Positions 3,476-49,934 of a DNA stretch of 64,000 bases are shown in pieces. The stretch's first letter is position 1. Each line of letters opens with the position of its first letter. Both the position numbers and the translations under genes were made by a program. The DNA lies in contig CAVSNY010000006.1 of the NCBI GenBank assembly GCA_963729605.1, positions 320,001-384,000 on the forward strand, in the 5' to 3' direction. The notes under the pieces were generated by a model. It saw nothing but the letters and a program-made list of their open reading frames with translations, was not told the origin of the DNA and made no database searches. The DNA comes from an uncultured Gammaproteobacteria bacterium. Its GTDB lineage: Bacteria; Pseudomonadota; Gammaproteobacteria; DRLM01.

Positions 3476-3640
3476 GCGCGGGAAATTTCGGGTCGTGGCT
3501 GCCTTTGTTCTACGGCACGCGGCCACTGAACCGCCTTGACCAAGCGCCGTCACCCCCCCGGCGAATGCCCCGTAAAATAGCGACCCATAACAGCGGGGCG
3601 CATCGTCTACTGTCAAACTGTAGCGATCTATCCAAGACCA

Positions 3641-3790
3641 CTAGACGATTCGACGACCTTGAATGAGACGAATCAGTATCACCACGATGGCGATCACCAA
3701 AAGAATATGAATGAATCCCCCCATGGTGTATGAGCTGACCAAGCCAAGTAACCACAATACAATTAAGATGACCGCTATTGTCTCGAGCAT
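3641..3790 (-). CDS. lmo0937-family (DUF5670) small membrane protein, 49 aa
   Basis: Not in the ORF track. Translation MLETIAVILIVLWLLGLVSSYTMGGFIHILLVIAIVVILIRLIQGRRIV*; strong AGGAGG RBS. Confidence 0.9.
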   Translation of the reverse strand: MLETIAVILIVLWLLGLVSSYTMGGFIHILLVIAIVVILIRLIQGRRIV

Positions 3791-4272
3791 TTTCTATCCT
3801 CCTATTAAACTGCCGTAAATCCAGGTCCGCGGAGAGGTTAGCGACGACGCATCTGACATAGCCGATATTGGCAAGATATTCTCCGCCATCCTCTATCTTG
3901 GAATAGCGGGTTCTCACGGCGACGCGGCACAAGAGGCAAGCACATCATCTCCATCTCACGGACGGTTTTTTCCTTCAATTGCATCGGCAAACCCCGCAAC
4001 AGGTCCGTCAACGCGTAAGCATGTGCTCCTCCGTCGCCAATATCCTGTCCGGCATGCGGCCTGTGGTAGGGTTTTGTTCGGCGAGGTATTCAAGGCCAAA
4101 GCTGATGGAGAGTTATGCGCATCAATCGGATCTGATACCTGAACAATAGAATGCTCATCAATTGAACGGAGCGGCGCTCAGCGAACCATCTCGCACTCGC
4201 CAGCACGGCAAAAGCTGGACCCACTACTGAAATTTATATCCGACAGTGGGCCGCATCCTAACTATCCACCCC

Positions 4273-4590
4273 TCATTTGAGCAGGATGTCGTCCTTGACG
4301 GATTTTACGCCCTTGACGCCTTGCGCAATCTCCGCCGCCTTGCGTTTGTCGCCCGCGTCGTGCACAAAGCCACTCAATTGAACCACGCCTTTGAAGGTTT
4401 CAACGTTGATCTCGGCCGACTTCAACGCAGCGTCATTGAAAATCGCCGCCTTCACTTTGGTGGTAATGACAGTATCGTCAATGAATTCGCCAGTCCCTGC
4501 GTGCTTTGCCGATGACGCACAACCCAGGGCGGAGGCTAACACAACGGTAAAAAACAATGCGGCAATGTGTTTCAGTGTTTTCACGGACAT
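4273..4590 (-). CDS. BON-domain (OsmY-like) lipoprotein
   Basis: Lipobox ALGC; DDTVITTKVKA...INVETFKGVVQLSGFV...VKGVKSVKDD is a single BON domain; AGGAG RBS. Confidence 0.92.
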   Translation of the reverse strand: MSVKTLKHIAALFFTVVLASALGCASSAKHAGTGEFIDDTVITTKVKAAIFNDAALKSAEINVETFKGVVQLSGFVHDAGDKRKAAEIAQGVKGVKSVKDDILLK

Positions 4591-4859
4591 GCTCTCCTGA
4601 TGCTATTGAAATAATACTTCTAATTCTCGCTCGAATTTATAATGAGCCGCTCCTACTGACGACCACTCAACGCGGTGCGATGCTGCGGCCGGTGCTGAAA
4701 GCTGCCTGTCTGATTGTCAATGCGCATCTATAAAAAGCACCGTCGCCATACCGAACCCGCTGGCTGCCATCGCCATCAAGCTCACGCATCGACGCAATCA
4801 CACCGTACCTCGCCATTCTGAAACGGTGAGAGGCAGCTTAGGCTCAACACTGAGCGCGG

Positions 4860-4879
4860 TCGGTACGGTGACGCACATA
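4860..4879. promoter_or_regulatory. Crp-family operator copy 1 (upstream of BON gene)
   Basis: TCGGTACGGTGACGCACATA; minus-strand TAAGCT (-10) at 4835-4840 puts the centre at -41.5. Confidence 0.75.
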
Positions 4880-5132
4880 AGACAGACAATGGTCGTGTAG
4901 GGTAGATGATCCCCAGGCGGGCTGAGCGACCATTCAACTCTGCATGAATCGTTAAGGATGTCCGAACGCGGATTGACCAGGCGGTTCGGCGCGAAACAGA
5001 GCGACGGAGACCGGTTCGATCGACTCAGCGTACCCGCCGCCTCGGCCGAGGCCGAGACACCGCCATCGTAAATATAACGACTACGTTGATCAGACTAAAT
5101 TAGGCCTCTTCCAAAATTTTCCACAGGCTCGC

Positions 5133-6299
5133 TCAAGCATCCGCGGGTCGTTGCAGTACCAATCGGTACGCATCCATTCCGCGACTGAGGAAGGCGTACG
5201 CCGATCCCCAGAGATAGAGGCGAAAGCGACGGTAGAGCATCTCGCCCCAGCGGCTGATGATCTCCTCCCTCGCGGCATCCAGATTTTCGGCCCACGCCTT
5301 ACATGTGAGGTAATAGTTGTGGCGGTCGTTGTGAACCGCCAACACCTCCAACGGAGTTTTCGCCGCTTCGCTCAGGAACTCGTGTAGACAGAAGTAGCTA
5401 TGATCCCCAGGAAAGATATAACGGGAGACGAAGGTGGGTTTGGAATATTTCTCGCGGAAAGCGCTGGCGTCGAGATACACTCGCCCCCCGGGTTTCAATA
5501 GGTTTTGTAACTGCCGCAACACGGCCGGATAATCGGGAAGATGCTCCATCACGCCCAATATGACGATGGCGTCATAAGGTTCAGGCGAGGTGTATTCCAA
5601 AAAATCCTGGTTCAGCACGCGGCAGGGAAGCTGCAAGCACTGAATCAGATCCGTCAGGAACTCTGCCGAGTGGCGCGATATCGTCAGCGAGGTGACCGCT
5701 ATACCGCGCCGGCCGGCATGCTCGGTAAAGGCGCCCCATCCACCGCCGACATCCAACACGCGACATCCCGGCCGCAATCGGCATGCATCGATGGCAAAGT
5801 CCAGTTTGCGGCACTGCGCCGTTTCCAGGGTCTCGTCGTCGCGCTCGAACACCGCTTGCGAATAACAGCGGGTCGGATCCATGAATTTTAGATAAAACTC
5901 ATTGCTGAAATCATAGTGGCTGGCAATCGCCCGGCGGTCGGTTTGCACCCGTCCGACGAATAGCGGCGCGATCCGCCGCCACAGGGTGTGCAGCGGATGG
6001 CTATCGCTCAGCACGCCGCGGAGACTGACGAAACCCAGCATATCCCCGACGACGTCCAGGCTACCCGCCATGTAAGCTTCGCAGATTCTCAGTTCGTCCA
6101 GTCCGCTGAGAGCGGCCAAACCGTCGCGATCCTTGACCAAGACCTTGAGCGCGGGTTCTCCTTTGCCGAAGCGATAGCTGCGATCTCCCCATAAGCGAAT
6201 CTCGAAGGGAATCTTTATCTGATCGGCCAAGCGATCCTGAAACAGCTTGAATACCCTATCGTAACGCGTTACCAAGGCAGCTTCGGCCGATATATCCAT
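5133..6299 (-). CDS. cfa: Cyclopropane-fatty-acyl-phospholipid synthase family SAM methyltransferase
   Basis: IASHYDFSNEFY, YSQAVF, LETAQ.RKLD, VLDVGGGWG, YIFPG, YYLTCKAW, FRLYLWG motifs; GGGAGGAG RBS before ATG 6299. Confidence 0.88.
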   Translation of the reverse strand: MDISAEAALVTRYDRVFKLFQDRLADQIKIPFEIRLWGDRSYRFGKGEPALKVLVKDRDGLAALSGLDELRICEAYMAGSLDVVGDMLGFVSLRGVLSDSHPLHTLWRRIAPLFVGRVQTDRRAIASHYDFSNEFYLKFMDPTRCYSQAVFERDDETLETAQCRKLDFAIDACRLRPGCRVLDVGGGWGAFTEHAGRRGIAVTSLTISRHSAEFLTDLIQCLQLPCRVLNQDFLEYTSPEPYDAIVILGVMEHLPDYPAVLRQLQNLLKPGGRVYLDASAFREKYSKPTFVSRYIFPGDHSYFCLHEFLSEAAKTPLEVLAVHNDRHNYYLTCKAWAENLDAAREEIISRWGEMLYRRFRLYLWGSAYAFLSRGMDAYRLVLQRPADA

Positions 6300-6522
6300 T
6301 GATCGCTCCTCCCATGAAACCCTAAAGTCCCACACCTTTAACAAGCACAGATCAGGATACTATCAGTTGAGGGATAACAGGGCTGTCAGTTTACAACACG
6401 CTTTGATTTTTATTGTCACGGCATCCGCCGTCCTCTTTCAGATCAAGGCCGCGGTCGAATAAAAACCGATCTTGCATCTTAAGGATAGTAAAACGGGTCA
6501 AGCATTATGACCTGGCGGCGCC

Positions 6523-8685
6523 TCACTTGAATTCAGCAAGGGCTCGCTTCATACTGGCCCTAAGCTCATCCCAGACCTTATCCACGATTACTTTGCCTGG
6601 CATACCGGTTCTCAGTAGTTCGGTGTACTCCTCGGCAACCATCGGCCGGTGGAAGTAATACCCTTGCGCCTCTCCACAGCGTGCCGTTCGGAGAAAGTCG
6701 AGTTGCTCTTGAGTTTCCACACCCTCGGCGCTGACCCGCTTATGAAGACTATTGCCCATGCCAATCACGGCACTAACGATGATGGCATCGTCCGGATCGG
6801 TGGTGATGTCACGCACGAACGACTGGTCGATTTTCAGGGTATCGATCGGAAAGCGTTTCAGATAACTTAAACTGGAATAACCAGTACCGAAGTCGTCGAT
6901 AGCCAGCTGCACGCCCAAGGCTTTGAGCGCCTGCAACACGCTGGCGGTGGATTCACCATCCTGCATGAGCGCGCTCTCGGTCAGCTCGATCCCGAGATAA
7001 GCCGGCTCCAGGCGAGTTTCCTCCAGGGCGTCGCGAATACCCTCGAGAAAATGCTTGCTGCGGAATTCGACTGCCGAGATATTGATAGCCACCGAGGCTG
7101 GCTGCAGGCCGGCATCCAACCACGCGCGAATTTGCCGGCATGCCTCGCGCAATACCCAACGCCCGATCGGTACGATGAGGCCGCACTCTTCGGCGATGGA
7201 TACGAATTGCCCAGGATGGAGGAGGCCGCGCTTGGGATGCAGCCAGCGGATAAGTGCCTCGGCGCCAGCAATCTCGCCGGTCTCGAGATGGATTTTTGGT
7301 TGATAATGCAAGACGAATTCCTGTGCTGCCACGGCACGCCGCAGCCCGGTTTCGAGAGATTGCCGCTCCACGGCCCGGTCGTTCATGTCCTGCATAAAGA
7401 ACTGGAAATTGTCGCGGCCATTTTGCTTGGCGTAATACATCGCGGCGTCGGCATTCTTGATTAGGGTTTCCGCATCTTCGCCGTCACCGGGATAAATGCT
7501 GATGCCTATGCTGAGGGTGATATGGAGGTCGTGTCCCGCGATATGGTGACGGTCCGCCAGCGCCAAAATGATCTTTTCCGCGCGGTGCGCCGCATCTTCC
7601 GAACGCTCGATATCGGAAAGCAACACCACGAATTCATCCCCGCCCTGGCGGCTGACGGTATCCGACTCGCGGACGCATGTCGTCAAGCGTTCCGCCACCG
7701 ACTCCAGTAATTTATCGCCGATCAGATGCCCCAACGAGTCATTAATGTTTTTGAACATATCCAGGTCCATAAACAGTACTGCCAGTCGTTTTCGCCGCCG
7801 CCGGGCATGCGAGATCGCTTGGGTAAGCCGATCACTCAAAAGCACGCGGTTGGGCAACCCAGTAAGAAAATCATGTTGGGCCAAATGCGACATTTTGAGT
7901 ACCATTGTCCGCGCCTCGCTGACATCATGGAAAACCATCACGGCGCCGATCACGTGACCGCCCCGGTCGCGAATGGGGGCAGCGGAATCCTCGATGGGTA
8001 CTTCAACACCGTCGCGCCGGATCAGGCTACTGTTTGCACTGAGTCCGACGGCTTTATTTCGCAGCACGGCCAATTCGATAGGACTGCGGGCAGGTTCGCC
8101 GGTAATGCCGTCGATGATGTGGAGCACGTCGGCAAGCGGCCGACCGGTTGCCTCTTCCCGCGACCAACCGGTCATGCGTTCGGCGACCAGATTGAGGTAG
8201 GTGACATTGCCGAGAATGTCGGAGCTGATTACGGCATCACCTATGGAGTCGAGCGTGACTTGAGCACGCTCTCTCTCGATAAACAGCGCCTCTTCCGCTA
8301 CCTTGCGCGCTATCACGTTGCGCAGGGCGTGAGACAAGGAGTAGCCGTCAATATGACTTCTGAGGAGGAAATCCTGCGCGCCGTGTTGTATGGCTTGCTG
8401 TGCGGCGTCTTCCTGGTCCAAATCACTGAGAATCAGGATCGGGACCTGAGACTCGATCGCATATAATTTATCGAAGGTCTCGATACGATGACTATCGGAC
8501 AGGAATAGATTGAGTAAGACCGCCTTGATCCCTCCATCATTGATGCGTGCGATGCCGTCCGCGAGTGTTGTAACCCATTCGATCGTGAATGGACCATATC
8601 TTGCGTCAACGAGCGTATCCCGAATCGATTTGGCAGCAGTGGGATCACCTTCGATGAGTAGAACCCTTTCATTGATATTGCCCAT
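6523..8685 (-). CDS. REC(degenerate)-PAS-GGDEF-EAL c-di-GMP metabolising protein
   Basis: HDFLTGLPNR, RESD I-site, GGDEF, AEALIRW and DDFGTGYSSLSYL all intact; PAS (TLDSIGDAVI...YLN); REC has LLNL in place of LLDL. Confidence 0.95.
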   Translation of the reverse strand: MGNINERVLLIEGDPTAAKSIRDTLVDARYGPFTIEWVTTLADGIARINDGGIKAVLLNLFLSDSHRIETFDKLYAIESQVPILILSDLDQEDAAQQAIQHGAQDFLLRSHIDGYSLSHALRNVIARKVAEEALFIERERAQVTLDSIGDAVISSDILGNVTYLNLVAERMTGWSREEATGRPLADVLHIIDGITGEPARSPIELAVLRNKAVGLSANSSLIRRDGVEVPIEDSAAPIRDRGGHVIGAVMVFHDVSEARTMVLKMSHLAQHDFLTGLPNRVLLSDRLTQAISHARRRRKRLAVLFMDLDMFKNINDSLGHLIGDKLLESVAERLTTCVRESDTVSRQGGDEFVVLLSDIERSEDAAHRAEKIILALADRHHIAGHDLHITLSIGISIYPGDGEDAETLIKNADAAMYYAKQNGRDNFQFFMQDMNDRAVERQSLETGLRRAVAAQEFVLHYQPKIHLETGEIAGAEALIRWLHPKRGLLHPGQFVSIAEECGLIVPIGRWVLREACRQIRAWLDAGLQPASVAINISAVEFRSKHFLEGIRDALEETRLEPAYLGIELTESALMQDGESTASVLQALKALGVQLAIDDFGTGYSSLSYLKRFPIDTLKIDQSFVRDITTDPDDAIIVSAVIGMGNSLHKRVSAEGVETQEQLDFLRTARCGEAQGYYFHRPMVAEEYTELLRTGMPGKVIVDKVWDELRASMKRALAEFK

Positions 8686-8814
8686 GCTCGTAAACTCCCT
8701 TAAATGCTAAATGACGCAGAGTGCAGGGTGTCGAACCCACTGCTGTTCTTAAGCTGCTCATCCATCGGGCAAGTCAATCGCCATGATTACGATACAGCGA
8801 GAAGGTTGGCATGC

Positions 8815-8834
8815 TCTGTTCGCTAACGAACATA
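8815..8834. promoter_or_regulatory. Crp-family operator copy 2 (upstream of GGDEF-EAL gene)
   Basis: TCTGTTCGCTAACGAACATA; minus-strand TATCGT at 8789-8794 puts the centre at about -42.5. Confidence 0.78.
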
Positions 8835-8947
8835 AGGTTGTAGCCGGTCTCAACCGGAGGACAGTGGTTCGCGGCGTCCATCACCATGAAAATACAACCC
8901 TGATAAGGACAGAGTCCGTTAATTTCTTGTCGTGGATTTATCAGACC

Positions 8948-8977
8948 AAAAAAAGGCCCTGCGAGGGGGCGCAAGGC
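8948..8977 (-). terminator. Intrinsic terminator after PRC-barrel gene
   Basis: Minus strand GCCTTGCG-CCCCCT-CGCAGGGC-C-TTTTTTT. Confidence 0.75.
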
Positions 8978-9041
8978 TGAAGGGAGAATATGTCGTCTAT
9001 ACCGCTTTAACCATAGAACTATAAATCAGTAACCCGCCTAC

Positions 9042-9947
9042 TCACGGCCGACGTTCCACGGTTTCGGGTTTAGGTTCCTGGGGAGCACCGGTCATACTCT
9101 CTTTTAACGACTGCCTCCAGTTTCCCTGGGCTATCTCAGGACTATTCTTAAGCTGGTCCAGGGTAGAAGAAATCCGTAATTTATCTTTCTTTTCGCCCAT
9201 GGAAAGCGTATTGGTAGGGACAACAACCACCTTGTCATTGATGCCCGCAAATCCTCCAATTGAAAGAATGGCGTAAGGTACGCGGCCGCCTTCAAAATCC
9301 ACGGCCAAGTTTTTCACTTTGCCAACATCCTCATTCTGACCAGTAATGATTTTTCCTCCGATAATATCGCTGGCTTTGCTGATCTTTTTGGTCTTTGCTA
9401 ACTCAGCCGGCATGTGTACGCCTGCACGCTGATACATGCTGTTTAAGGCTTGCTGATTTACAGAATTGTTCCACTCAGAATTCGGAAGTGCCGGAGATTC
9501 CTTAATAATCTTCTCTGATAAATTAAGAATAAGAGATTGGCCGGTCGCGACACTCGCTCCGTCATTAAACAAACCGAAACTTTGCGGCGGCATGGCTAAT
9601 AATTTATCGCCCATCCCCAGAAAACCACCTGCGGACACTACTACGTAGCTGATTCGACCGCCGTTCAAATCGATGGCTAAATCCTTCACTTCTCCAATCT
9701 TATTTTTTTTGTTGTCAGTAACGCTTTTTCCAATTATGTCGGACGCTTCTACAAATTTGTGGCCCTGTTCCAGCTCTTGGGCACGACGCCCGTCTTCCAC
9801 GCCCTCTTGAACTTTTCCTTGTCGACTTGAATCGGAAGCGGCGATGACCTCACTCGTCCCCAGCGTCATTGTCGAAAAGAAAATGGCGCCCGTTAAAAAC
9901 ATACCCGCCCCTTTCATGGGGCGAACCGCCAACATTTGCTTACTCAT
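9042..9947 (-). CDS. Exported tandem PRC-barrel domain protein
   Basis: N-terminal hydrophobic segment; two repeats of ASDIIG..(V/I).....(I/V)G.VK.LA.D..GGR..Y...S.GGF.G..DK; AAGGAG RBS before ATG 9947. Confidence 0.88.
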   Translation of the reverse strand: MSKQMLAVRPMKGAGMFLTGAIFFSTMTLGTSEVIAASDSSRQGKVQEGVEDGRRAQELEQGHKFVEASDIIGKSVTDNKKNKIGEVKDLAIDLNGGRISYVVVSAGGFLGMGDKLLAMPPQSFGLFNDGASVATGQSLILNLSEKIIKESPALPNSEWNNSVNQQALNSMYQRAGVHMPAELAKTKKISKASDIIGGKIITGQNEDVGKVKNLAVDFEGGRVPYAILSIGGFAGINDKVVVVPTNTLSMGEKKDKLRISSTLDQLKNSPEIAQGNWRQSLKESMTGAPQEPKPETVERRP

Positions 9948-10261
9948 ATCCAACTCCTTAATTTAAATAAACATAGACACTCGGGATCTGCCTGCGCATT
10001 TTTAGCAAGTGCCCTATACCACAGAAGACGACATACATTAAAAATTTTTAGAGCGGCTTGGAATTTCATACTCAATATGAGCATGGCCAGGTATGCCATC
10101 TGAGTTATCCGGCAAACACCTTCAGCCACGTGGCGGATAAATCAGAGTTAAATGAGCCTTACTTTTTGTGATTTAAACATCTCGAGAGAGGACCCGGCTG
10201 CGCAGGCAGACTCTAAGATCAACCTTCACTGCCAACTTTATACACCCCTCCCACAATACGT

Positions 10262-10281
10262 TCTGTACGCTGACGCACAGA
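10262..10281. promoter_or_regulatory. Crp-family operator copy 3 (between divergent PRC-barrel and crp genes)
   Basis: TCTGTACGCTGACGCACAGA, the best palindrome. Minus-strand TATAAA at 10237-10242 gives centre -41.5; plus-strand TATAAT at 10321-10326 gives centre -61.5. Confidence 0.82.
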
Positions 10282-10343
10282 GGCGGCAGATTGACGCTGC
10301 CTCATGCCGACGCTTACTCATATAATCTTCTGGCTGATTATGT

Positions 10344-10363
10344 TCTGTGCGGTAGAGGACATA
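10344..10363. promoter_or_regulatory. Crp-family operator copy 4 (degenerate, upstream of first crp)
   Basis: TCTGTGCGGTAGAGGACATA; right arm has one core mismatch. Confidence 0.6.
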
Positions 10364-10475
10364 CCAGGAAGGAGGGGTATATACTGCGACGGCGTAAGTC
10401 CATCCCCATATCAACCCATGGTCCTTATTGTCGAGATCGCCTCATGGAACGAATCTGACAGCATGGAGGTGTCGT

Positions 10476-11192
10476 ATGGCTTTACAAAAACCAGAGCACA
10501 ACAATCTTCTCGCCGCCCTGCCCGAGCCCATACGCGGGCGGCTGTTTCCGCATTTGGAATTAGTAGAGATGCCGCTTGGCGAGGTCCTTTACGAATCCGG
10601 CTGCCAGTTGCACTACGTCTATTTCCCCACGACCTCCATCGTGTCTTTGCTTTACGTCATGGAAGATGGCGCATCGGCCGAGATTGCGGTGGTGGGAAAG
10701 GAAGGCATACTCGGCGTCGCCATTTTCATGGGCGGTGAAACCACCCCGAGCCGGGCCATCGTACAGAGCGAAGGCCACGGATTCCGGCTCAAGGCGCAGT
10801 TGCTCAAGGATGAATTCAATCGTGCCGGACCGATGATGCATCTATTGCTGCGTTACACCCAGGCGCTGATTACCCAGATGTCGCAGACGGCGGTCTGCAA
10901 TCGGCATCATTCCGTACATCAACAACTGTGTCGCTGGCTGCTGTTGAGCCTGGACCGACTGCCTTCGAGCAAACTGACCATGACTCAGGAATTGATCGCC
11001 AATATGCTCGGCGTGCGCCGCGAGGGAGTTACGGAAGCCGCCGGTAAATTGCAAAACGCCGGGTTGATACTCTACAGTCGCGGACAAATCACCATTCTCG
11101 ATCGGCAGGGACTGGAGGCGCAGGCCTGCGAGTGCTATCAAGTGGTCAAAAAGGAGTTTGATCGCCTGCTCCCCGACCTGATGGCCGAGTAA
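10476..11192 (+). CDS. Crp/Fnr-family transcriptional regulator (paralogue 1)
   Basis: NNLLAALP, VYFPTT cNMP-fold domain, HTH TQELIANMLGVRREGVTEAAGKLQ, C-terminal ACECY; GGAGG RBS before ATG 10476. Confidence 0.95.
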   Translation: MALQKPEHNNLLAALPEPIRGRLFPHLELVEMPLGEVLYESGCQLHYVYFPTTSIVSLLYVMEDGASAEIAVVGKEGILGVAIFMGGETTPSRAIVQSEGHGFRLKAQLLKDEFNRAGPMMHLLLRYTQALITQMSQTAVCNRHHSVHQQLCRWLLLSLDRLPSSKLTMTQELIANMLGVRREGVTEAAGKLQNAGLILYSRGQITILDRQGLEAQACECYQVVKKEFDRLLPDLMAE

Positions 11193-11252
11193 TTCCTTAC
11201 CAAGCGTTGCACACTCTCACCCTGACCCACCCACCTCGCAGAAATTACGCGC

Positions 11253-11272
11253 TATGTTCGACAGCGTACAGA
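11253..11272. promoter_or_regulatory. Crp-family operator copy 5 (upstream of second crp)
   Basis: TATGTTCGACAGCGTACAGA; plus-strand CAAGCT at 11292-11297 puts the centre at -41.5 and resembles TAAGCT of copy 1. Confidence 0.75.
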
Positions 11273-11662
11273 ATTTACCGCCGCTTCGGCTCAAGCTTAG
11301 CGAGGATTATGTTAGCGAACCAGGATGTATTCTAAAAAGTGCGCCGCCTTTTCGCGCGCGGGAGAGTCTCTCTTAATATAGGCTAATATAGGCGGCACCG
11401 CTGAGGCTGCTAATAGCAGCACGGGCGCATGGGGGGCCGATAAAGGACGCTCCGTTTTTAACAAAGCGTAAATTCAGATAAGACCGAATTACACGCTTCC
11501 CGATCAAATTGCTAGTCGGCCCCTCTTACCAAAATATTGCGCATCGGGTCGGAGACCCTTTTATCCGGCAAACTCCATCCGAAATCAGGATTACATCGCG
11601 TACATGGCCCGCACCGCCCGTTGGCTTTAGACCCGACGCTACAGGAGATTCCTACCCCCACT

Positions 11663-12357
11663 ATGCACGCTCCTCATACCAATCGTCTGCTTACCGCGCT
11701 GCCCCCCAGGATCGGAAACACTTCCTTGCGAGCTGCGAACAAGTCGAACTCGTGTTCGCCGACGTGCTCTGCGAACCGGGCGACCCTATCCGTCACGTTT
11801 ACTTCCCCACCGACAGCTATATTTCTTTGGTTAATCCGATCGATCGCGACACCCGCCTGGAGGTGGCACTGGTAGGTAATGAAGGCATGCACGGGATTGC
11901 CCTGGTACTGGGAGTGAATATTTCACCGCTGCACGCCTTGGTGCAGGGCGATGGTTCCGCGTTGCGCATCAGCGCCGCGCCGTTTCGCCGTCAACTCCAG
12001 CACAGCCCGGCGCTGCAACGGGGTCTGAACAGCTACATCTATGTGCAAATGAGCCAACTCGCGCAGACGGCGGCCTGCACCCGTTTTCATGTGGTCGAGG
12101 CGCGTCTCGCCCGCTGGCTGTTGATGACCCACGATCGAGCGCATTCGGACGAACTGCATATCACCCAAGAATTTCTCGCCTCCATGCTGGGCGTGCGTCG
12201 GGTCGGCATCACCAAGGCCGCCGGCTCACTGCAAAAACGCAAACTGATCAACTATAGCCGCGGCACCATCACGGTTCTCAACCGCGGCGGCCTGGAAGCC
12301 GCTTCTTGCGGGTGTTATCAGGCCGACAAGGCAACGTACACCCGCATCATGGGCTAG
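11663..12357 (+). CDS. Crp/Fnr-family transcriptional regulator (paralogue 2), frameshifted at C6 11702-11707 as sequenced
   Basis: [15 protein letters not shown] lies in one frame and [15 protein letters not shown]...VYFPTD...[24 protein letters not shown]...ASCGCY in another; adding one C joins them and matches paralogue 1. Confidence 0.88.
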
Positions 12358-12504
12358 CCCGCCCGCCATATCTTGATGGATGGATGAAGTCTGCATGCGC
12401 AGTGCGGGATGAAATACTAGGTTACCCGTCTTCACGACAGCCTCGGTGAGACATGCCTCAATCTCTTGCATCCACTCACCCAGAGGCGTTTCCACTATTA
12501 AGAA

Positions 12505-12531
12505 GGAAGCTCTGAATAATTCCGTCCTGGA
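12505..12531 (+). repeat. Solo left end of the MITE-like element at 1137
   Basis: GGAAGCTCTGAATAATTCCGTCCTGGA versus GGAAGCTCTGAATAATTCCATCCTGGA at 1137-1163 (26/27 identical). Confidence 0.8.
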
Positions 12532-12687
12532 TTCACCGGATATAAGGAGAGCGAAAAATGTCATGTTTTCTTTCCTTCATTAAACATTCTGCGCCCGCTC
12601 ATACCGCATAACCAAATTAATTGGTTACCCACATCGGCGGAACGCCGGTTGCATCTCAAATACGGTTCCTTTCCAAAAACTTTTCCT

Positions 12688-12707
12688 AATGTGCGATAGC
12701 GTACGGA
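12688..12707. promoter_or_regulatory. Crp-family operator copy 6 (upstream of DUF3494/OmpA genes)
   Basis: AATGTGCGATAGCGTACGGA, followed by a one-base-shorter echo ATATGCGATAAGTACGGA at 12721-12738. Confidence 0.68.
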
Positions 12708-12922
12708 AGGCGGTGGACGAATATGCGATAAGTACGGACGGCATGATAACCCGTCTTATCGCACTGATCCGATTTTGCATTAACGCCGGTCAAAGTGATG
12801 CTCACCCAGCCGCGAAGCCCGGCAACAGCGAAAGTCAAACATTGAAAAAACACATCGGCATAAACACCGGCAAAGAGCCGGTCGATTTTTTAACGATTCT
12901 GCCAGAGTAAAGAGGGTTGCAA

Positions 12923-14755
12923 ATGAAAAATTTCGAAAGCATTACTAAACTACCGACGCAGTTCATGACATTACTGTTGATTATATTAATGGCGGCATGC
13001 GAAGGCGGGCGAGATCCCATCCTAGGCGGGGGCGGTAGTCTCGCCGCACTCGCGCCGACGGTGACTGCCGTCGCCCCGGTCAATAACGCCACCGGCGTAG
13101 CGATCAACACCCTCATCACCGCCGCTTTTAATGAACCGATGGCCCCCCTCACCGGCGCGGCAAGCTTCACGGTGACGTGCGCGGCGCCTTGCACCGATCC
13201 CACGGGCACGGTAGCCCTCGACGCCACAAACAGGATTGCCAGCTTTACTCTTGCAAGCACAACCACCCTCGCGCCCTCCACCCTCTATACGGTCACGGTC
13301 ACCGGGGCTCGCAGTCTCGCCACAGGCCTGGCATTGGCGAGCCCCTATGTATGGCGCTTTACGACGGGCGTCACGTCGGACACCACCCGGCCCACAGTGA
13401 CGTCTACCGCCCCTGCCGACGGTGCTACCGACGTTGCGATCAACAGGAGGGTCACCGCGACGTTCAGTGAAGACATGAACCCGGCAACGATCACCGGAAC
13501 CAGCTTTGCGGTGACGGGGCCCGGCACAACCGGGGTAGCAGGCACGGTGAGCTACACTGTCGGTGCCAGAACCGCGATCTTTACGCCGACAGCCAATCTG
13601 CCAGACGGCGTCTTGTTTACTGCCACGCTTAACACGGGAAACGCGGATCTGGCCGGCAATACGCTGGCGGTTAACAAGGTATGGACCTTTACAACCGGTA
13701 CGGCCGCAGATACCACCGCACCCACGGCGATTCTGGTGAATCCCGCCGATCTTGCCACGGCCGTGGCAGTCAACAGTGCCGTCAACGTGACGTTCAGCGA
13801 GGCAATGGACCCGTTAACGATCAGCACGGCCAGCTTTATGGTACAAGCCAGCGGCCCCCCGCTGGGTCCAACATTAGCAGGGTCGGTCAGCCATGATCCA
13901 CTGACCCATATTGCAACCTTTACGCCCTCAAGCGATCTCGCAGTCAATACCGCGTATACAGCCACGGTTACCACCGAAGCCACCGACTTGGCGGGAAATG
14001 CGCTTGCGGTTAACAAAATATGGAGTTTTACAACTGCAGCAGCAGCGCCGGTGATACAAACCGCGGTAAACCTGCAATCGGTCGCACCGTTCGGCGCGGC
14101 GGGTGGCGCGGGGATCACCAGCTGCGGGAATACCGTGATTACGGGTGATGTCTCGACCACCTCCGCATCGACTTTAGTCACTGGATTAACCGATGGGAAC
14201 GGACTCGGCAACTCCTATACGATCGCGGGTTGTCCGGGAATAGTAGACGGAAAGATCTATACCGCCCCACCACCGCCCGGAGACGCAGATTCACTGGCGA
14301 TCGCAACTCAGGCCCAAGATGATGCGCAAACCGCGTTTGATGCCACCTCGCCCGCGTCAATGCCGGGGGGAATAAGTCAGGCCGCCGAACTCGGCGCGCT
14401 AACCCTCGCCCCCGGTATCTATACGTCGGGAACCTCGTTTGAGATAACCACCGTGGATCTCACCCTCGACGCCCAGGGCGACGCGAATGCCGTCTGGATA
14501 TTCCAGTCACCGAGCACGCTCACCGTGGGAGTCAATGTCAACGTTATTCTGACCAACGGCGCCAAGGCCAAGAATGTTTTTTGGCATGTCGGCAGTGCAG
14601 CCACTATCAACGCCGGCGCGGCGATGCAAGGAACCATCCTAGCCTTTTCAGGCGTCTCGATGGGTACCGGCGCGACGCTGGAGGGCAGGGCCATATCCCT
14701 GGTCGGCGGCCCGGTTACCTTGCTGAGCAACATTATCAACGTGCCTGCCCCGTAA
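12923..14755 (+). CDS. Lipoprotein with three Ig-like (Big_5/SbsA-type) domains and C-terminal DUF3494 ice-binding-like domain
   Basis: Lipobox LMAAC; three PT(V/A)....P...AT.VA.N....(A/T)F.E.M...(W.FTT) repeats; DUF3494 signature LAPGIY, LTLDAQGDANAVWIFQ, LTNGAKAKNVFWHVGSAATI, GTILA, LEGRA. Confidence 0.9.
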   Translation: MKNFESITKLPTQFMTLLLIILMAACEGGRDPILGGGGSLAALAPTVTAVAPVNNATGVAINTLITAAFNEPMAPLTGAASFTVTCAAPCTDPTGTVALDATNRIASFTLASTTTLAPSTLYTVTVTGARSLATGLALASPYVWRFTTGVTSDTTRPTVTSTAPADGATDVAINRRVTATFSEDMNPATITGTSFAVTGPGTTGVAGTVSYTVGARTAIFTPTANLPDGVLFTATLNTGNADLAGNTLAVNKVWTFTTGTAADTTAPTAILVNPADLATAVAVNSAVNVTFSEAMDPLTISTASFMVQASGPPLGPTLAGSVSHDPLTHIATFTPSSDLAVNTAYTATVTTEATDLAGNALAVNKIWSFTTAAAAPVIQTAVNLQSVAPFGAAGGAGITSCGNTVITGDVSTTSASTLVTGLTDGNGLGNSYTIAGCPGIVDGKIYTAPPPPGDADSLAIATQAQDDAQTAFDATSPASMPGGISQAAELGALTLAPGIYTSGTSFEITTVDLTLDAQGDANAVWIFQSPSTLTVGVNVNVILTNGAKAKNVFWHVGSAATINAGAAMQGTILAFSGVSMGTGATLEGRAISLVGGPVTLLSNIINVPAP

Positions 14756-14768
14756 GGCTCGAGGTCAA

Positions 14769-14809
14769 AATAAAGGCCGGCAGAGTCATTCTTCCTGCCG
14801 ACCTTTATT
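14769..14809. terminator. Stem-loop between DUF3494 and OmpA genes (terminator or mRNA-stabilising element)
   Basis: AATAAAGGCCGGCAG...CTGCCGACCTTTATT inverted repeat. Confidence 0.55.
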
Positions 14810-14898
14810 GCTTCATCAGGACAAAGTCAACTCACAGTCATGCTTCACCGTGACGTGATGACTTTAATTAAAGACGGTAAATCCCCCGGGAGAAAAAT

Positions 14899-16395
14899 AT
14901 GAAACTAGCAAGAGCCAAATCAGCAAGAACCTCAGGGACGCTGGGGTTGATGGCACTCGCTGCGATCACCAGCTCATTCGCAATGGCGGACGATTCAGGC
15001 TGGTACGGCGGGATCAATCTTGGCCACTCGAGCGCCAAATTCGACGACGGCAATATCACCCGCGGCCTACAGGAGCGCGGTTTTACCACGACCTCGTTCG
15101 CCGGGGACGACGACGAACTCGGCTATAAGCTTTTTGGCGGGTATCAGTTCAACAAGAATTTTGCGCTTGAAGGCGGTTATTTCGATCTGGGCGAGTTTGA
15201 TTTTACGGCGACCACGGTGCCGGCCGGGACACTGAACGGCAATATCAAGCTCAAAGGCGTGAATCTCGATGCCGTCGGCATATTACCCCTCGCCGAACGA
15301 TTTTCTGCATTTGGCCGGGTCGGATTGAACTACGCTGAAGCCGAAGACTCCTTCACCGGCACCGGATTAGTCAATGTGCTCAACCCCAACTCCAGCAAGC
15401 GTGATACGAATTACAAGTTTGGCTTGGGGCTTCAGTACGATTTCACGGAATCTCTCGCAATGCGCGCCGAGGCGGAACGCTACCGGATCAACGACGCCGT
15501 CGGCGACAAAGGCGACGTCGATCTGGTCTCGGTCGGCCTGGTCTACCGGTTCGGCAAAAATAAGGCCGCTCCCGTAGCCGCCACGAAAACGGCGGCGACC
15601 CCTCCCTCCGCGCCCATGGTTGCGGCGGCACCGGTGCTGGTTGTCGTGCCGGTCCCGGCGCAGACCGAACAGTATTGCAGCATTCTCGACATCCAGTTCG
15701 AAATTAACCAGGACGAAATTCAGCGCGAAGAGCAGGAGAAGCTCGCGGTGGTGGGCACCTTCTTGAACAAATATCCCGACACCACGGCCATGATCGAGGG
15801 TCACAGCGATAATGTAGGAATGCCTGAGCAAAATATAAAACTGTCCCAACAGCGGGCGAAGAGCGTGGTGGACTATCTGGTGAATAACTTCCAGATCGCG
15901 CCGTCCCGCTTGTCGGCGGTGGGCTACGGAGATACCCGCCCCATCGCGGACAACGGTACCGAGGAAGGGAAACGGCGGAACCGGCGTATCAATGCCGTCA
16001 TCGCGTGTGCGACGGACATCGAGGGGCTGACGGTGATCCCCGCCAGAACCACCATGGCCATGCTAATCGAGTTCGACCAGAACAAGGCCGATATTCGGCC
16101 GCAGTACCGCGATGAAATCGGCAAGGTGGCCAATTTTATGAAAGCGAACCCCTCCATCACCGCAACCGTGGAAGGCCATACCGGCAATCTAAGTGGGACC
16201 CCCGAGCTGGCGATGGAAATCTCGCAACGCCGCGCTCAGAAGGTGGTGGATTACCTGGTGGATAACTTTGGTATCGCACGTTCGCGACTTTCCGCGGAAG
16301 GCTTCGGCGAAACTCGACGTTTCGCCTACAACACCAGCTTAGAAGGACAGCAGGAAAACCGCCGGGTCAACATCATCTTCAACTACGCCAAGTAG
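14899..16395 (+). CDS. OmpA-family outer membrane protein with beta-barrel and two C-terminal peptidoglycan-binding domains
   Basis: Signal peptide, GWYGG...GYQFNKNFALEGGY...VGLVYRFG barrel, Pro/Ala linker, two EGH...SQ.RA..VVDYLV...G(Y/F)G.TR...NRR(I/V)N domains. Confidence 0.92.
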   Translation: MKLARAKSARTSGTLGLMALAAITSSFAMADDSGWYGGINLGHSSAKFDDGNITRGLQERGFTTTSFAGDDDELGYKLFGGYQFNKNFALEGGYFDLGEFDFTATTVPAGTLNGNIKLKGVNLDAVGILPLAERFSAFGRVGLNYAEAEDSFTGTGLVNVLNPNSSKRDTNYKFGLGLQYDFTESLAMRAEAERYRINDAVGDKGDVDLVSVGLVYRFGKNKAAPVAATKTAATPPSAPMVAAAPVLVVVPVPAQTEQYCSILDIQFEINQDEIQREEQEKLAVVGTFLNKYPDTTAMIEGHSDNVGMPEQNIKLSQQRAKSVVDYLVNNFQIAPSRLSAVGYGDTRPIADNGTEEGKRRNRRINAVIACATDIEGLTVIPARTTMAMLIEFDQNKADIRPQYRDEIGKVANFMKANPSITATVEGHTGNLSGTPELAMEISQRRAQKVVDYLVDNFGIARSRLSAEGFGETRRFAYNTSLEGQQENRRVNIIFNYAK

Positions 16396-16666
16396 CGGTA
16401 GAACCCGGGCTGCACGGCCCGGCACCGCATTCCAAACCTGGTCAACGCCATCCCCTCGGAGATGGCGTCGACGCATCCGGCATCACTATTTTTCGCATAA
16501 AACAATCCTCAGAAAAATTTTGGGGGTCGTGACTACCGTGATCGGCGCGGTATGCCCGGCAACCCGCCTTGATCACACGCCGTCACCCCCGGCGGCTGCG
16601 CCCGCCCCGCCGCTCTGCTAAAGTAGCGTCCCTCTGACAGTCGGCGCCGGGCGCCGCAACCGCAAG

Positions 16667-40719: not shown

Positions 40720-41901
40720 TTATGCCGTCGTCGACTGCAAGGTGTACCCCTTCAAGGAACGGGCGAAGTCCTGCAACCCTTTGATGCCGGTTTCCTCGGC
40801 CTGCTTACACCATTCCTGAAGGTGGACCAGCAAGCTGTCTTGCGAGGTGTGGGAACGCTGCCACAAATCCTGCAAACGGGTCTTGTATTCGTAGACCGTG
40901 CTCAAGGCCGGACTGCGGTTCAAGGCCGCCTGTAACTGAACCTTATCCTCCTCGTCCATCACGGCATCGCCGCGCACCAAGGTGGTTTTCGCCCGTTTCA
41001 GCAAACTGCGGCAACCCGTATCGGCCTTGTACGCCTCTTCGCGCAACACCGGCACCACCACGTCTTTGGCGTAATGCGACAATACGTGCAGACGATTCAC
41101 CAAAATCGCCTTCACCGTTTCCATATCCACCGCGTGTTTGCTGGGATTGATCACGGGTTCCGGCGCTACTTTCTTCACCTTGGCCAAACCGAGGATCTCG
41201 AAACTGCGGATATAGAACCAACCGATATCGAACTCCCAGGGCTTGGAAGAGAGCTTGGCCGAGCTCGGGAAGGCATGGTGGTTGTTATGCAACTCTTCGC
41301 CGCCGATGATGATGCCCCAAGGCGAGATATTAGTAGCGGCATCCGGGCTTTCATAATTACGGTAACCCCAGAAGTGGCCAATCCCATTGACGATGCCCGC
41401 CGCGAAAATCGGGATCCACAACATCTGCACCGCCCAGATGGTCAGACCGATGGGTCCGAACAAGAGCAGGTTTATGCTCAACATCACGCCGATGCCTATC
41501 TTGCTGCTGCCGGTGTAGACGTGCCGTTCCAGCCAATCATCGGGCGTGCCGCGACCGTATTTTTCCAGGGTTTCGGCGTTGCGCGACTCTCTCCGATAAA
41601 GCTCGGCGCCTTCCAAGAGCAATTTACGCAAACCAAAGATTTGCGGGCTATGGGGATCTTCTTCGGTTTCACAGCGGGCGTGATGTTTACGATGCACCGC
41701 CGTCCATTCCTTGGTCACCATGCCCGTGGTCAACCACAACCAGAAACGGAAGAAATGACTTACTACCGGATGCAACTCCAAGGAGCGATGAGCCTGATGG
41801 CGGTGCAAATAAATAGTGACGGCGGCGATCGTGACGTGGGTCAGACCCAAGGCCACCAACACATAACCCCACCAGGATAAATCCAACAATCCGTTCAACA
41901 T
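40720..41901 (-). CDS. desA: Delta-9 acyl-lipid fatty acid desaturase
   Basis: His boxes HRHQAH, HRKHH, HNNHH; GEELHNNHH, WEFDIGW; C-terminal helical extension. Confidence 0.92.
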   Translation of the reverse strand: MLNGLLDLSWWGYVLVALGLTHVTIAAVTIYLHRHQAHRSLELHPVVSHFFRFWLWLTTGMVTKEWTAVHRKHHARCETEEDPHSPQIFGLRKLLLEGAELYRRESRNAETLEKYGRGTPDDWLERHVYTGSSKIGIGVMLSINLLLFGPIGLTIWAVQMLWIPIFAAGIVNGIGHFWGYRNYESPDAATNISPWGIIIGGEELHNNHHAFPSSAKLSSKPWEFDIGWFYIRSFEILGLAKVKKVAPEPVINPSKHAVDMETVKAILVNRLHVLSHYAKDVVVPVLREEAYKADTGCRSLLKRAKTTLVRGDAVMDEEDKVQLQAALNRSPALSTVYEYKTRLQDLWQRSHTSQDSLLVHLQEWCKQAEETGIKGLQDFARSLKGYTLQSTTA

Positions 41902-42042
41902 GTAGCGACAACCCCGCAAATAGTTGATTAAAAGACCAGAATTACAAGCCGACTGACTTAGCTTAGCATAGCCTGAATTGGGCTATTCGTCCAATTCCAT
42001 AGTCCGAGTAAGTCTATAGGCGCGCAGCCCGGATATCAAGGC

Positions 42043-47539: not shown

Positions 47540-47648
47540 GCCGCCTAGGCTTAAGAACTATCGAGACCACCGGCAATTTACTTTATCGCCGGCGGTAAAG
47601 TCTGTGGAATGTATCCCAATTCAAAAGGAGCGGGCGAACGCCGCGTCC

Positions 47649-48563
47649 TCAGCTGGCGGACATCGGCTGCATGAACGAAATCGGCGCCCGGCTGCTGTCT
47701 TCTTCGAAGGTCACCAGCTCCCACGCGGTCTCGTCGGCCATCAGCTCCCGCAGCAGGCGATTATTCAACGCATGGCCGGATTTGTAACCGCTGAAGGCGC
47801 CGATCAGACTGCGGCCGAGCAGGTACAAGTCGCCGATGGCGTCCAGCACCTTGTGTTTGACGAACTCGTCATCGTAACGCAGACCGTCTTCGTTCAATAC
47901 ACGGTAATCATCCACCACCACCGCGTTGTCGAGACTGCCGCCCAGGGCCAGATGCTTCTCGCGCAACAACTCGATGTCCCGCGCGAAGCCGAAGGTCCGC
48001 GCCCGGCTCACTTCCTTGACGAAGGAGGTGGTCGAAAAATCCATCACCGCTTCTTGGCTGCGGCTTTTGAATACCGGGTGATTGAAGTCGATGGCGAAGG
48101 ACACCTTGAAGCCTTCGAAGGGCTCGAAGCGGGCCCACTTGTCGCCGTCCGCCACTTGGATGGGCTTTTTGATGCGGATAAACCGCTTGGGCGCATTCTG
48201 TTCTTCCACGCCCGCGGACTGGATCAAAAATACGAAGGGCCCGGCACTGCCGTCCATGATCGGCACCTCGGGGGCGCTGAGGTCCACATAGGCGTTATCG
48301 ATACCCAGACCGGCGAAGGCGGAGAGCAGATGCTCCACCGTGGCGATGCGCACTTCGCCGTTCACCAAGGAGGTGGACAAGGTGGTCTCGCCGACGTTTT
48401 CCGCACGGGCACGGATCTCCACCGGCGGATCGAGGTCCACGCGGCGAAAGGTGATGCCGGAATCCACCGCCGCCGGACGCAAGGTCAGATAGACCTTTTC
48501 CCCGCTGTGGAGGCCGACACCCGTCGCGCGTATGACATTTTTCAGCGTTCTTTGCCTAATCAT
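47649..48563 (-). CDS. lpxC: UDP-3-O-acyl-N-acetylglucosamine deacetylase
   Basis: [40 protein letters not shown]. Confidence 0.98.
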
Positions 48564-48710
48564 CCTAGCTTCACCTATCCCCATTTCCGACTGAATAAAT
48601 AAATGGGCGCCAAATCCCGAGTTTGGCGGCATGTTAGCACAGCGCCTGACTGAATGCCTAGCACAATCCCGGACGGCCGTCGAGGGCGGCCGTCCGGGAT
48701 TTGCCCTCTC

Positions 48711-49862: not shown

Positions 49863-49934
49863 AATAAACCTCCTTAGATTTTTCCAAATTCATTACCGCC
49901 CAAAATAGTTCCAGCGCCCGCCGGTCCCGCTGAT

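Follow-up and report, generated by a model that had tools for sequence, protein, structure and literature searches.

The subject of this analysis is a 64,000-nt (64-kb) stretch of DNA from an uncultured Gammaproteobacteria bacterium (GenBank assembly GCA_963729605.1, contig CAVSNY010000006.1, positions 320,001 to 384,000), referred to below as the window, and in it a ~13-kb block at 3480–16590 that is richer in AT than its surroundings and carries two Crp/Fnr-family regulator genes, crp1 and crp2. We propose, with a probability of roughly 70%, that an unnamed, widely conserved Crp/Fnr clade to which crp1 belongs controls a regulon whose local core is this block. Computation established that there is a palindromic motif, that it is enriched and linked to the regulator gene, and how it is spaced from promoter elements. 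The regulon would tie general-stress marker proteins, together with membrane-lipid-modifying and cyclic di-GMP (c-di-GMP) enzymes, to one DNA-binding activator, whereas BON/OsmY, CsbD, YmgE-like, DUF883 and glycine-zipper proteins have been assigned chiefly to the RpoS or EcfG regulons. If the proposal is true, a large unnamed Crp/Fnr clade acquires a function along with a motif and a predicted regulon, and many 'hypothetical' small envelope proteins acquire a regulatory context.

A shared palindrome and its promoter geometry

A scan of the window for the core TGTNCGNNNNCGNACA (TGTNCG-N4-CGNACA), allowing at most one mismatch, returned six sites in 64 kb, starting at 4862, 8817, 10264, 10346, 11255 and 12690. 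All six lie in the non-coding DNA of the block, which amounts to 3,659 nt (28% of the block and 5.7% of the window) and in which 300 local shuffles produced a mean of 0.11 sites and a maximum of 1. Three of the sites are exact, where 0.05 are expected and none of 100 shuffles reaches three. Outside the block, the window contains no site with one mismatch or fewer. With their flanks the sites read TMTGTNCG-N4-CGNACAKA, a 20-bp palindrome, and they cover five intergenic regions, namely those of the BON, GGDEF-EAL, PRC/crp1 (two sites), crp2 and Big_5/Ice_binding genes. An earlier note on this DNA, made from the sequence alone, had described such a palindrome at five transcription units and none in the housekeeping part, and both the scan and the shuffles bear it out.

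The same note had proposed beforehand that the motif, if it belongs to the Crp-type regulator, should be enriched at orthologous loci. The loci compared were the best 80 of 609 confirmed from species-representative genomes (1,274,995 nt; 73–82% identity to crp1). The search was seeded with crp1 only and took DNA up to 10 kb on each side, less at contig ends, with 42 of the 80 loci being full-length. These loci span Burkholderiales, Xanthomonadales, Chromatiales, methylotrophs, a Photobacterium and a few metagenome-assembled genomes labelled Spirochaetota or Terriglobia. They contain 87 exact and 223 one-mismatch cores, compared with 0–5 and 32–49, respectively, in five shuffles, an exact-match enrichment of ~40-fold; the consensus is T-c-TGTgCG-cTAg-CGyACA-g-A. 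Moreover, 47 of the 77 assessable crp1-type genes and 21 of the 36 crp2-type genes are preceded by a site at a distance of no more than 400 bp, compared with 10% of random positions. Many loci have two sites 70–108 bp apart before crp1, serving divergent promoters, as in the window. Upstream conservation and enrichment near orthologues together are what comparative genomics expects of an autoregulated regulon, and the expectation set out beforehand was thus confirmed.

Site density in the 42 full-length loci peaks at the regulator, with 36 sites in the kilobase before it and 11–15 per kb nearby, and at the far ends it is still 2–7 per kb, compared with ~1.4 expected from shuffles. The regulon is therefore clustered near its regulator and not confined to that neighbourhood. 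The block had been called self-contained, a description that this comparison does not support: elsewhere the density exceeds chance as far as 10 kb away from the regulator, and the window covers only 64 kb of the genome.

The position of the sites relative to candidate −10 elements is strongly constrained. In 620 oriented flanks (both sides of the 310 sites in the 80 loci), TAnnnT starts exactly 21 nt past the core in 89 cases and at 22 nt in 22, while all other offsets from 1 to 69 give 0–10 and about 4 as a rule. In the 89 flanks, the three bases following the core are G in 80%, A in 92% and C in 56%; this GAC would be what is left of a −35 element spaced 17 nt from the −10 element. Of the two half-sites, the one distal to the −10 element is the stricter, with G in 64% at position 4. 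With the −10 element taken to occupy −12 to −7, a 21-nt gap would centre the site at −41.5, the class II activator arrangement. The fixed spacing is that of class II activator-dependent promoters and indicates that the regulator is most likely an activator. Three window sites have a −10 element at 21 or 22 nt: site 1 (4862–4877, one mismatch) faces the BON gene, with TAAGCT at 4835–4840, 21 nt from the core; site 2 (8817–8832, exact) faces the GGDEF-EAL gene, with TATCGT after a gap of 22; and site 3 (10264–10279, exact) faces the PRC gene, with TATAAA on the minus strand after a gap of 21.

The fifth base of the −10 element is C in 46% of these promoters, compared with 24% in background TAnnnT. 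C at this position is a feature favoured by sigma-S. The −10 elements cannot separate sigma-70 from sigma-S, and the suggestion that the activator works instead of an alternative sigma factor is not supported.

The crp1 clade and its paralogue

The product of crp1 (10476–11192, plus strand; 238 aa) belongs to the Crp/Fnr superfamily, with HTH_Crp_2 (56.9 bits) and cNMP_binding (31.8 bits) domains both scoring above their cut-offs. Its clade is very large (at least 8000 candidates at E ≤ 1e-10), and the best 120 relatives among the matches listed are all at least 78% identical to it; their source annotation reads only 'Crp/Fnr family transcriptional regulator'. No NCBIfam equivalog, CRP models included, was matched by crp1, and the nearest solved structures are distant (GlxR, E 8e-9; NtcA, 1.4e-5; DNR, 3.6e-5). 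Full-text literature searches, whose coverage excluded subscription journals and supplements, returned no description of this clade, motif or regulon. The mechanism proposed below is a textbook one; the clade, the site and the regulon appear to be undescribed.

Among the closest known systems is E. coli CRP, with which crp1 shares the cNMP_binding and HTH_Crp_2 domains, a 16-bp TGT-N10-ACA palindrome and the inferred −10 spacing of class II promoters, which would centre the site at −41.5. Residues R180 and E181 of CRP take part in half-site recognition, and the crp1 recognition helix, RREGVTE, retains Arg and Glu at these columns, which fits the TGTG...CACA half-sites. The two proteins are nonetheless only 16% identical, the inner half-site is CG here and GA in CRP, and the targets here are stress and envelope genes instead of catabolic operons. 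In E. coli CRP, cyclic AMP (cAMP) is contacted by E72, R82 and S83. These contacts are not evident in crp1: E72 is aligned with a gap, and R82/S83 lie opposite T/T/P, with an Arg 1–2 positions later, in an alignment that is unreliable at 16% identity. Canonical cAMP binding by crp1 is doubtful.

A different kind of input can be imagined from the cysteines. crp1 has a C-terminal extension of 25–27 residues that CRP lacks, and this extension carries a CxC motif. Across 17 crp1-type sequences, C141, H144, H145, C152, C218 and C220 are invariant. In an alignment of 36 sequences comprising both paralogue types and two FNR-like proteins, C141, C218 and C220 are at least 90% conserved, H145 is invariant and C152 is kept in the crp1 type only. 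C141 and H144/H145 map to the hinge when aligned to E. coli CRP. We speculate that the hinge Cys/His residues and the C-terminal CxC may provide a redox or metal input. The [4Fe-4S] centre of FNR is held by an N-terminal cysteine cluster; the 17 crp1-type sequences have no conserved Cys within their first 40 residues, which sets them apart from FNR/Anr, and the motif here is not TTGAT-N4-ATCAA.

Cyanobacterial NtcA binds GTA-N8-TAC, a site that lies some 22 nt before a TAN3T −10 element. It resembles the present system in several respects: GTA-N8-TAC is contained in the TGTACG...CGTACA variants of the motif, the activator geometry with a TAnnnT −10 element is the same, and NtcA is among both the nearest solved structures and the nearest NCBIfam models. 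The differences lie in the host phyla and in the targets, which here include no nitrogen-assimilation genes, and the NtcA model TIGR03697, whose cut-off is 244.95, gives crp1 a score of 21.9 and crp2 one of 29.1, so that neither protein counts as NtcA.

The second regulator gene, crp2 (11663–12357, plus strand), encodes a protein 41% identical to crp1 over 213 residues, with HTH_Crp_2 at 56.6 bits and cNMP_binding at 17.4 bits, the latter under its cut-off. It represents a second conserved type, with the recognition helix RRVG(V/I)TK (here RRVGITK), Val at the CRP E181 column and C152 lost. We take NtcA to have Val at this column as well. Genes of the crp2 type occur in 36 of the 80 loci and adjoin the crp1 type in 29. 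The 'activator pair' of the earlier note is not supported, crp2 being frameshifted here and its site lacking a canonical −10 element. A separate crp2 motif was sought among all 5-mer inverted repeats with spacers of 0–12 nt, with known sites masked. The top palindromes in the 80 loci, AGCAG-N12-CTGCT and GCAGC-N10-GCTGC, were rejected as conserved coding sequence of the regulator, and among the top hits checked no new intergenic palindrome was recognised.

Targets, mechanism and competing explanations

All open reading frames (ORFs) starting within 400 nt of a site were clustered, and cluster representatives were searched against Pfam. Counted in loci, the recurrent families are GGDEF/EAL (12), CsbD (11), BON (10, plus 2 with a triple-BON form), DUF3309 (9), hybrid histidine kinases (8), fatty-acid desaturases with an ISL3-like C-terminal region (8) and DUF3096 (6), followed by OmpA, DUF1328, Transgly_assoc and FA_hydroxylase (4 each) and by PRC, DUF883, Na/H exchangers, PHB depolymerase and FNR-like regulators (3 each). 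When 119 promoters were oriented by their −10 elements, 113 had a first ORF: 26 encode Crp paralogues, 40 belong to other families and 47 fall into none of the Pfam families. CsbD, BON and glycine-zipper proteins account for 3 first ORFs each and PHB depolymerase and Band_7 for 2 each. A further 27 families occur once, among them DUF3309, DUF3096, DUF1328, DUF883, Transgly_assoc, LemA, fatty-acid desaturase, fatty-acid hydroxylase, squalene-hopene cyclase, the S30AE hibernation factor, GGDEF and a tRNA-synthetase hit that is likely false. The FNR/Anr-like genes (Pfam PF00325) stand directly behind the motif in 3 loci (for example L020:5824–6633 and L045:2035–3018), a hint of cross-regulation between the crp1 clade and its oxygen-sensing relatives.

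These lists agree with the general-stress-type and envelope targets that had been predicted for the block, in that CsbD, BON, glycine-zipper and lipid-modifying proteins recur elsewhere. The proposed co-occurrence of the window's own families, assessed by tblastn in the 80 loci, was borne out in part: BON (18 loci), GGDEF/EAL (17) and DUF5670 (6, of which 5 have a site within 900 bp upstream) recur, but PRC (1, and 3 by clustering) and Ice_binding (1) hardly do. The single Ice_binding homologue lacks a site, and the suggested freezing response is not supported. The core of the regulon consists of regulators, small stress and envelope proteins and lipid-modifying enzymes, and the ice-binding link is local. 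The suggested coupling to c-di-GMP is supported in so far as GGDEF/EAL proteins are recurrent neighbours or targets in both the clustering and the tblastn counts. In this link, in family and in host groups the system recalls the c-di-GMP-binding Crp/Fnr proteins Bcam1349 of Burkholderia cenocepacia and Clp of Xanthomonas; it differs in that the GGDEF-EAL gene is here a target, with c-di-GMP not indicated as the ligand. No Bcam1349 binding motif for comparison was found in the accessible part of the source (PMC3584217).

Based on these findings, we propose a mechanism. A crp1 dimer would bind the consensus palindrome, near −41.5 at most promoters, where it would stand in for a proper −35 element, of which only the GAC core is left, and would recruit RNA polymerase in class II fashion. 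It would activate its own gene and that of crp2, the paralogue type with a different recognition helix. Its other targets in this block would be the genes for the BON lipoprotein, the GGDEF-EAL protein and the PRC-barrel protein, and probably also the one for the ice-binding-like lipoprotein. In other genomes the targets would include CsbD, glycine-zipper, DUF3309, DUF3096, DUF1328, DUF883 and YmgE-like small proteins, as well as fatty-acid desaturase and hydroxylase, CFA (cyclopropane fatty acid) synthase, PHB depolymerase, SPFH proteins and the hibernation factor. Binding by crp1, activation and a function in stress- or stationary-phase envelope remodelling are thus predictions from sequence.

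The general stress regulons of proteobacteria are those of RpoS in the gamma and beta classes and of EcfG in the alpha class. Many families are common to them and to the set above (OsmY/BON, CsbD/YjbJ, YmgE/Transgly_assoc, ElaB/DUF883, CFA synthase, PRC-barrel, hibernation factor); the difference is a DNA-binding activator site here in place of a sigma-specific promoter, although a sigma-S reading may still apply. More tentatively, and as a possibility to which we give less than even weight, the clade may be an unrecognised master activator of a general-stress, dormancy and envelope programme in Beta- and Gammaproteobacteria, carried on plasmids and integrative elements. It would work as a two-tier cascade (crp1 acting on itself and crp2), be switched by redox or metal at the hinge Cys/His and CxC instead of by cAMP, and operate beside or independently of RpoS.

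Several observations weigh against the regulon as proposed. In the window, site 4 (10346–10361, one mismatch, towards crp1) is followed by TATACT after a gap of 18 nt (AGGACA-18 nt-TATACT, ending at 10385). Two further sites lack a canonical −10 element, namely site 5 (11255–11270, exact, between crp1 and crp2), with CAAGCT at the expected place of TAnnnT, and site 6 (12690–12705, one mismatch, before the Big_5/Ice_binding gene). No separate site serves the CFA synthase, DUF5670 or OmpA gene, even when 3 mismatches are allowed together with a plausible geometry. The N-terminal ~15 codons of crp2 (11663–11710) are out of frame with the rest, the break falling at a C6 run (11702–11707) across which intact relatives read LP-x-x-D-R-R; either the homopolymer was misassembled or crp2 is a pseudogene. 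Among the 80 loci, 30 of the 77 crp1-type genes have no upstream site at one mismatch or fewer, and TAnnnT at 21–22 nt accompanies only 111 of 620 flanks, or no more than 111 of the 310 sites, so that many of them may act in another way or be without function. The −41.5 position and the transcription start site derive from the −10 spacing only. Of the first ORFs, the 47 of 113 without a Pfam family include some that are mis-called, and linkage is rare for PRC, for CFA synthase (2 loci), for Ice_binding and for OmpA (4).

Among the competing explanations, the one that survives best, though we consider it unlikely, is that the regulon is a low-oxygen or redox dormancy response like that of Anr/FNR, sensing redox state or metal through the conserved cysteines. 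The conservation of C141, C218, C220 and H145, the placement of C141 and H144/H145 at the hinge, the CxC extension, the gap at the E72 column and the FNR-like genes behind the motif in 3 loci are all compatible with it, as is the presence of a hibernation factor, PHB depolymerase and an FMN reductase among the targets. What appears to be the closest published analogue found, in the accessible part of its description, is the lxa locus of B. cenocepacia, which has Anr-like Crp/Fnr regulators and one motif at 17 intergenic points (PMC3721108). Like the block, it combines its own Crp/Fnr genes, a repeated intergenic palindrome, BON proteins and stress proteins, and its BON ('phospholipid-binding') proteins are among the genes most strongly induced at low oxygen (221- and 89-fold; PMC3721108). 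Identity with lxa is ruled out by the lxa motif, TGA-N6-TCA, which is of the Anr/FNR type (PMC3721108); as described there, lxa also holds many universal stress proteins, and its induction is experimental where the present case is sequence-based. Against a redox response also stand the lack of an N-terminal FNR-type Cys cluster in crp1 and the lack of universal stress proteins or respiratory genes among the targets seen in the 80 loci, and the desaturase, CFA synthase, hopanoid, BON and CsbD genes fit an envelope or general stress response at least equally well.

Somewhat less probable still is that the palindrome is bound mainly by the crp2 type, by a mixed crp1/crp2 dimer or by another factor, with crp1 only a target. 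Position 4 of the half-site is G or A, and mixed G/A sites are in excess (95 observed, 69.9 expected). In CRP mutants, as in NtcA, a Val at the E181 column moves the preference away from G and towards A, and crp2, which has Val there, adjoins or lies near crp1 in the 36 loci noted above. The G/A asymmetry is promoter-oriented, however, with the distal half-site favouring G and the proximal one relaxed, as expected if RNA polymerase contacts compensate. Moreover, 44 of the 80 loci carry sites without a crp2-type gene within the up to 10 kb covered on each side, and the sites in the window are intact while crp2 is frameshifted. Repression, with the palindrome as an operator, is within reach of Crp-family proteins, and in three loci (L008, L018 and L032) TAGACT follows the core before the regulator by ~7–8 nt, counted by eye; it is nevertheless improbable, because operators overlap the −10 element or start site at variable positions and the dominant 21-nt spacing with its GAC remnant is that of activator-dependent class II promoters. 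Finally, there is a negligible likelihood that the repeat arose by chance or reflects the composition of the AT-richer intergenic DNA. For this speaks only that the six-site count does not differ significantly from shuffles of the whole window (mean 2.8, with 6 reached in 7 of 100); against it stand the enrichment in the window, the enrichment in 80 independent loci and the fixed promoter register.

The block, its borders and its possible mobility

The composition of the block sets it apart. In 1-kb windows, GC content is 0.47–0.58 at 3–13 kb and 0.57–0.62 at 13–17 kb, compared with 0.59–0.71 over most of 17–64 kb, and GC content at third codon positions (GC3) is 0.50–0.71 in the nine block genes, compared with 0.68–0.91 in 20 outside genes (the ttcA-like gene excluded). 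Together with the Pfam assignments, these values substantiate the earlier description of an AT-richer block with two Crp/Fnr paralogues. The block is flanked by a DUF3592 gene and a PP-loop (ttcA-like) gene, and both its borders carry an imperfect direct repeat of ~80 nt on the plus strand, at 3484–3560 and 16512–16592. The 27-nt cores of the copies, at 3531–3557 and 16564–16590, agree in 24 of 27 positions, and the core pattern occurs at these two places in the window only, with 0 expected. Neither border repeat has a significant RNA fold, folding being no better than in shuffles. The repeat may be the remnant of an insertion site.

Orthologues of crp1 are found on plasmids, 63 plasmid records matching it at E ≤ 1e-40 (best match 60–80% identical in 20 and below 60% in 43). 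On the conjugative pKLC102 of Pseudomonas aeruginosa, the regulator adjoins a relaxase and an integrase; one 21-nt-spaced site precedes a hypothetical gene, followed downstream by an ORF (10845–12863 in L081 coordinates) that fuses a fatty-acid hydroxylase to a CFA synthase (CMAS), and another precedes a desaturase. A 3.2-Mb replicon of B. cenocepacia has 21-nt-spaced sites before Ysc84, PRC-barrel, phosphoglucomutase and DUF3309 genes, with a BON gene nearby. These plasmid-borne orthologues, one of them on a conjugative plasmid, fit the word 'portable' used for the module. The low GC and GC3, the flanking repeats and the plasmid-borne orthologues suggest that the block itself was acquired horizontally. 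Of the marks of a genomic island, it shows deviant composition and flanking direct repeats; counting against this origin, Pfam finds no integrase, transposase or relaxase among the nine block genes, and no tRNA gene was found anywhere in the 64-kb window.

The domain names that had been given to the block genes (BON, CMAS, GGDEF-EAL, PRC, DUF5670, DUF3494, which is Ice_binding, and OmpA) were all reproduced by Pfam. On the minus strand, the series begins with a 49-aa small membrane protein of the DUF5670/lmo0937 family (3641–3790; Pfam PF18919, E 5.8e-17; NCBIfam NF033488) and a BON-domain, OsmY-like protein (4273–4590; E 5.8e-19) whose translation shows a lipobox-like LGC. A cyclopropane-fatty-acyl-phospholipid synthase-like methyltransferase follows (5133–6299; Pfam CMAS, E 4.3e-54), for which the longest ORF extends to 6344 and which NCBIfam CFA synthase models match with scores under their cut-offs. 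The REC-like-PAS-GGDEF-EAL protein (6523–8685; Pfam) has intact GGDEF, RxxD and EAL motifs in its translation, and its receiver domain has an Asn (AVLLNLFLSD) at what we take to be the position of the acceptor Asp. The last minus-strand gene (9042–9953) encodes two PRC-barrel domains (Pfam PRC, E 1.7e-25, two stretches) behind an N-terminal hydrophobic stretch, and a terminator-like hairpin lies 3' of it at 8956–8977.

On the plus strand, crp1 and crp2 are followed by a gene (12923–14755) for three Big_5 Ig-like domains (E 1e-64) and an Ice_binding domain (DUF3494; E 4.8e-54), with a lipobox-like MAAC. For this protein, which has the Pfam domain, NCBIfam IBP_CFB scores 76.9 against a cut-off of 400. 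A second, degenerate motif copy, TGCGATAAGTACGGA (12721–12735, 1 base shorter), lies 31 nt past the site at 12690 and looks like a duplicated, then decayed site; the leader at 12790–12925 folds no better than shuffles. The last gene (14899–16395, plus strand) encodes an OmpA-like outer-membrane beta-barrel with two OmpA C-terminal domains (Pfam OmpA_membrane, OmpA twice). Between the two genes, at 14769–14809 (plus strand), lies a stable terminator-like hairpin (−24.4 kcal/mol, z −2.87; 1 of 200 shuffles folds equally well), whose A-tract/hairpin/U-tract organisation resembles a bidirectional terminator. Of the single DUF3494-OmpA unit that had been assumed, the site before the DUF3494 gene stands, but because this strong hairpin precedes OmpA there may be two transcription units. 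Rfam returned no family at gathering score within the window and, at E ≤ 1 inside the block, one chance microRNA match only, on the hairpin at 14748–14826.

Elsewhere in the window, several long ORFs of the GC-rich DNA overlap real opposite-strand genes, and the candidate long ORFs at 1269–2807, 47604–48602 and 48654–49877 (all plus strand) match no Pfam family. A second AT-richer patch at 40720–41919 (minus strand) encodes a fatty-acid desaturase whose C-terminal region matches DDE_Tnp_ISL3. It lacks an upstream motif site and has the architecture of the desaturases found beside sites in 8 related loci; the two short genes next to it we take to encode ribosomal proteins L28 and L33.

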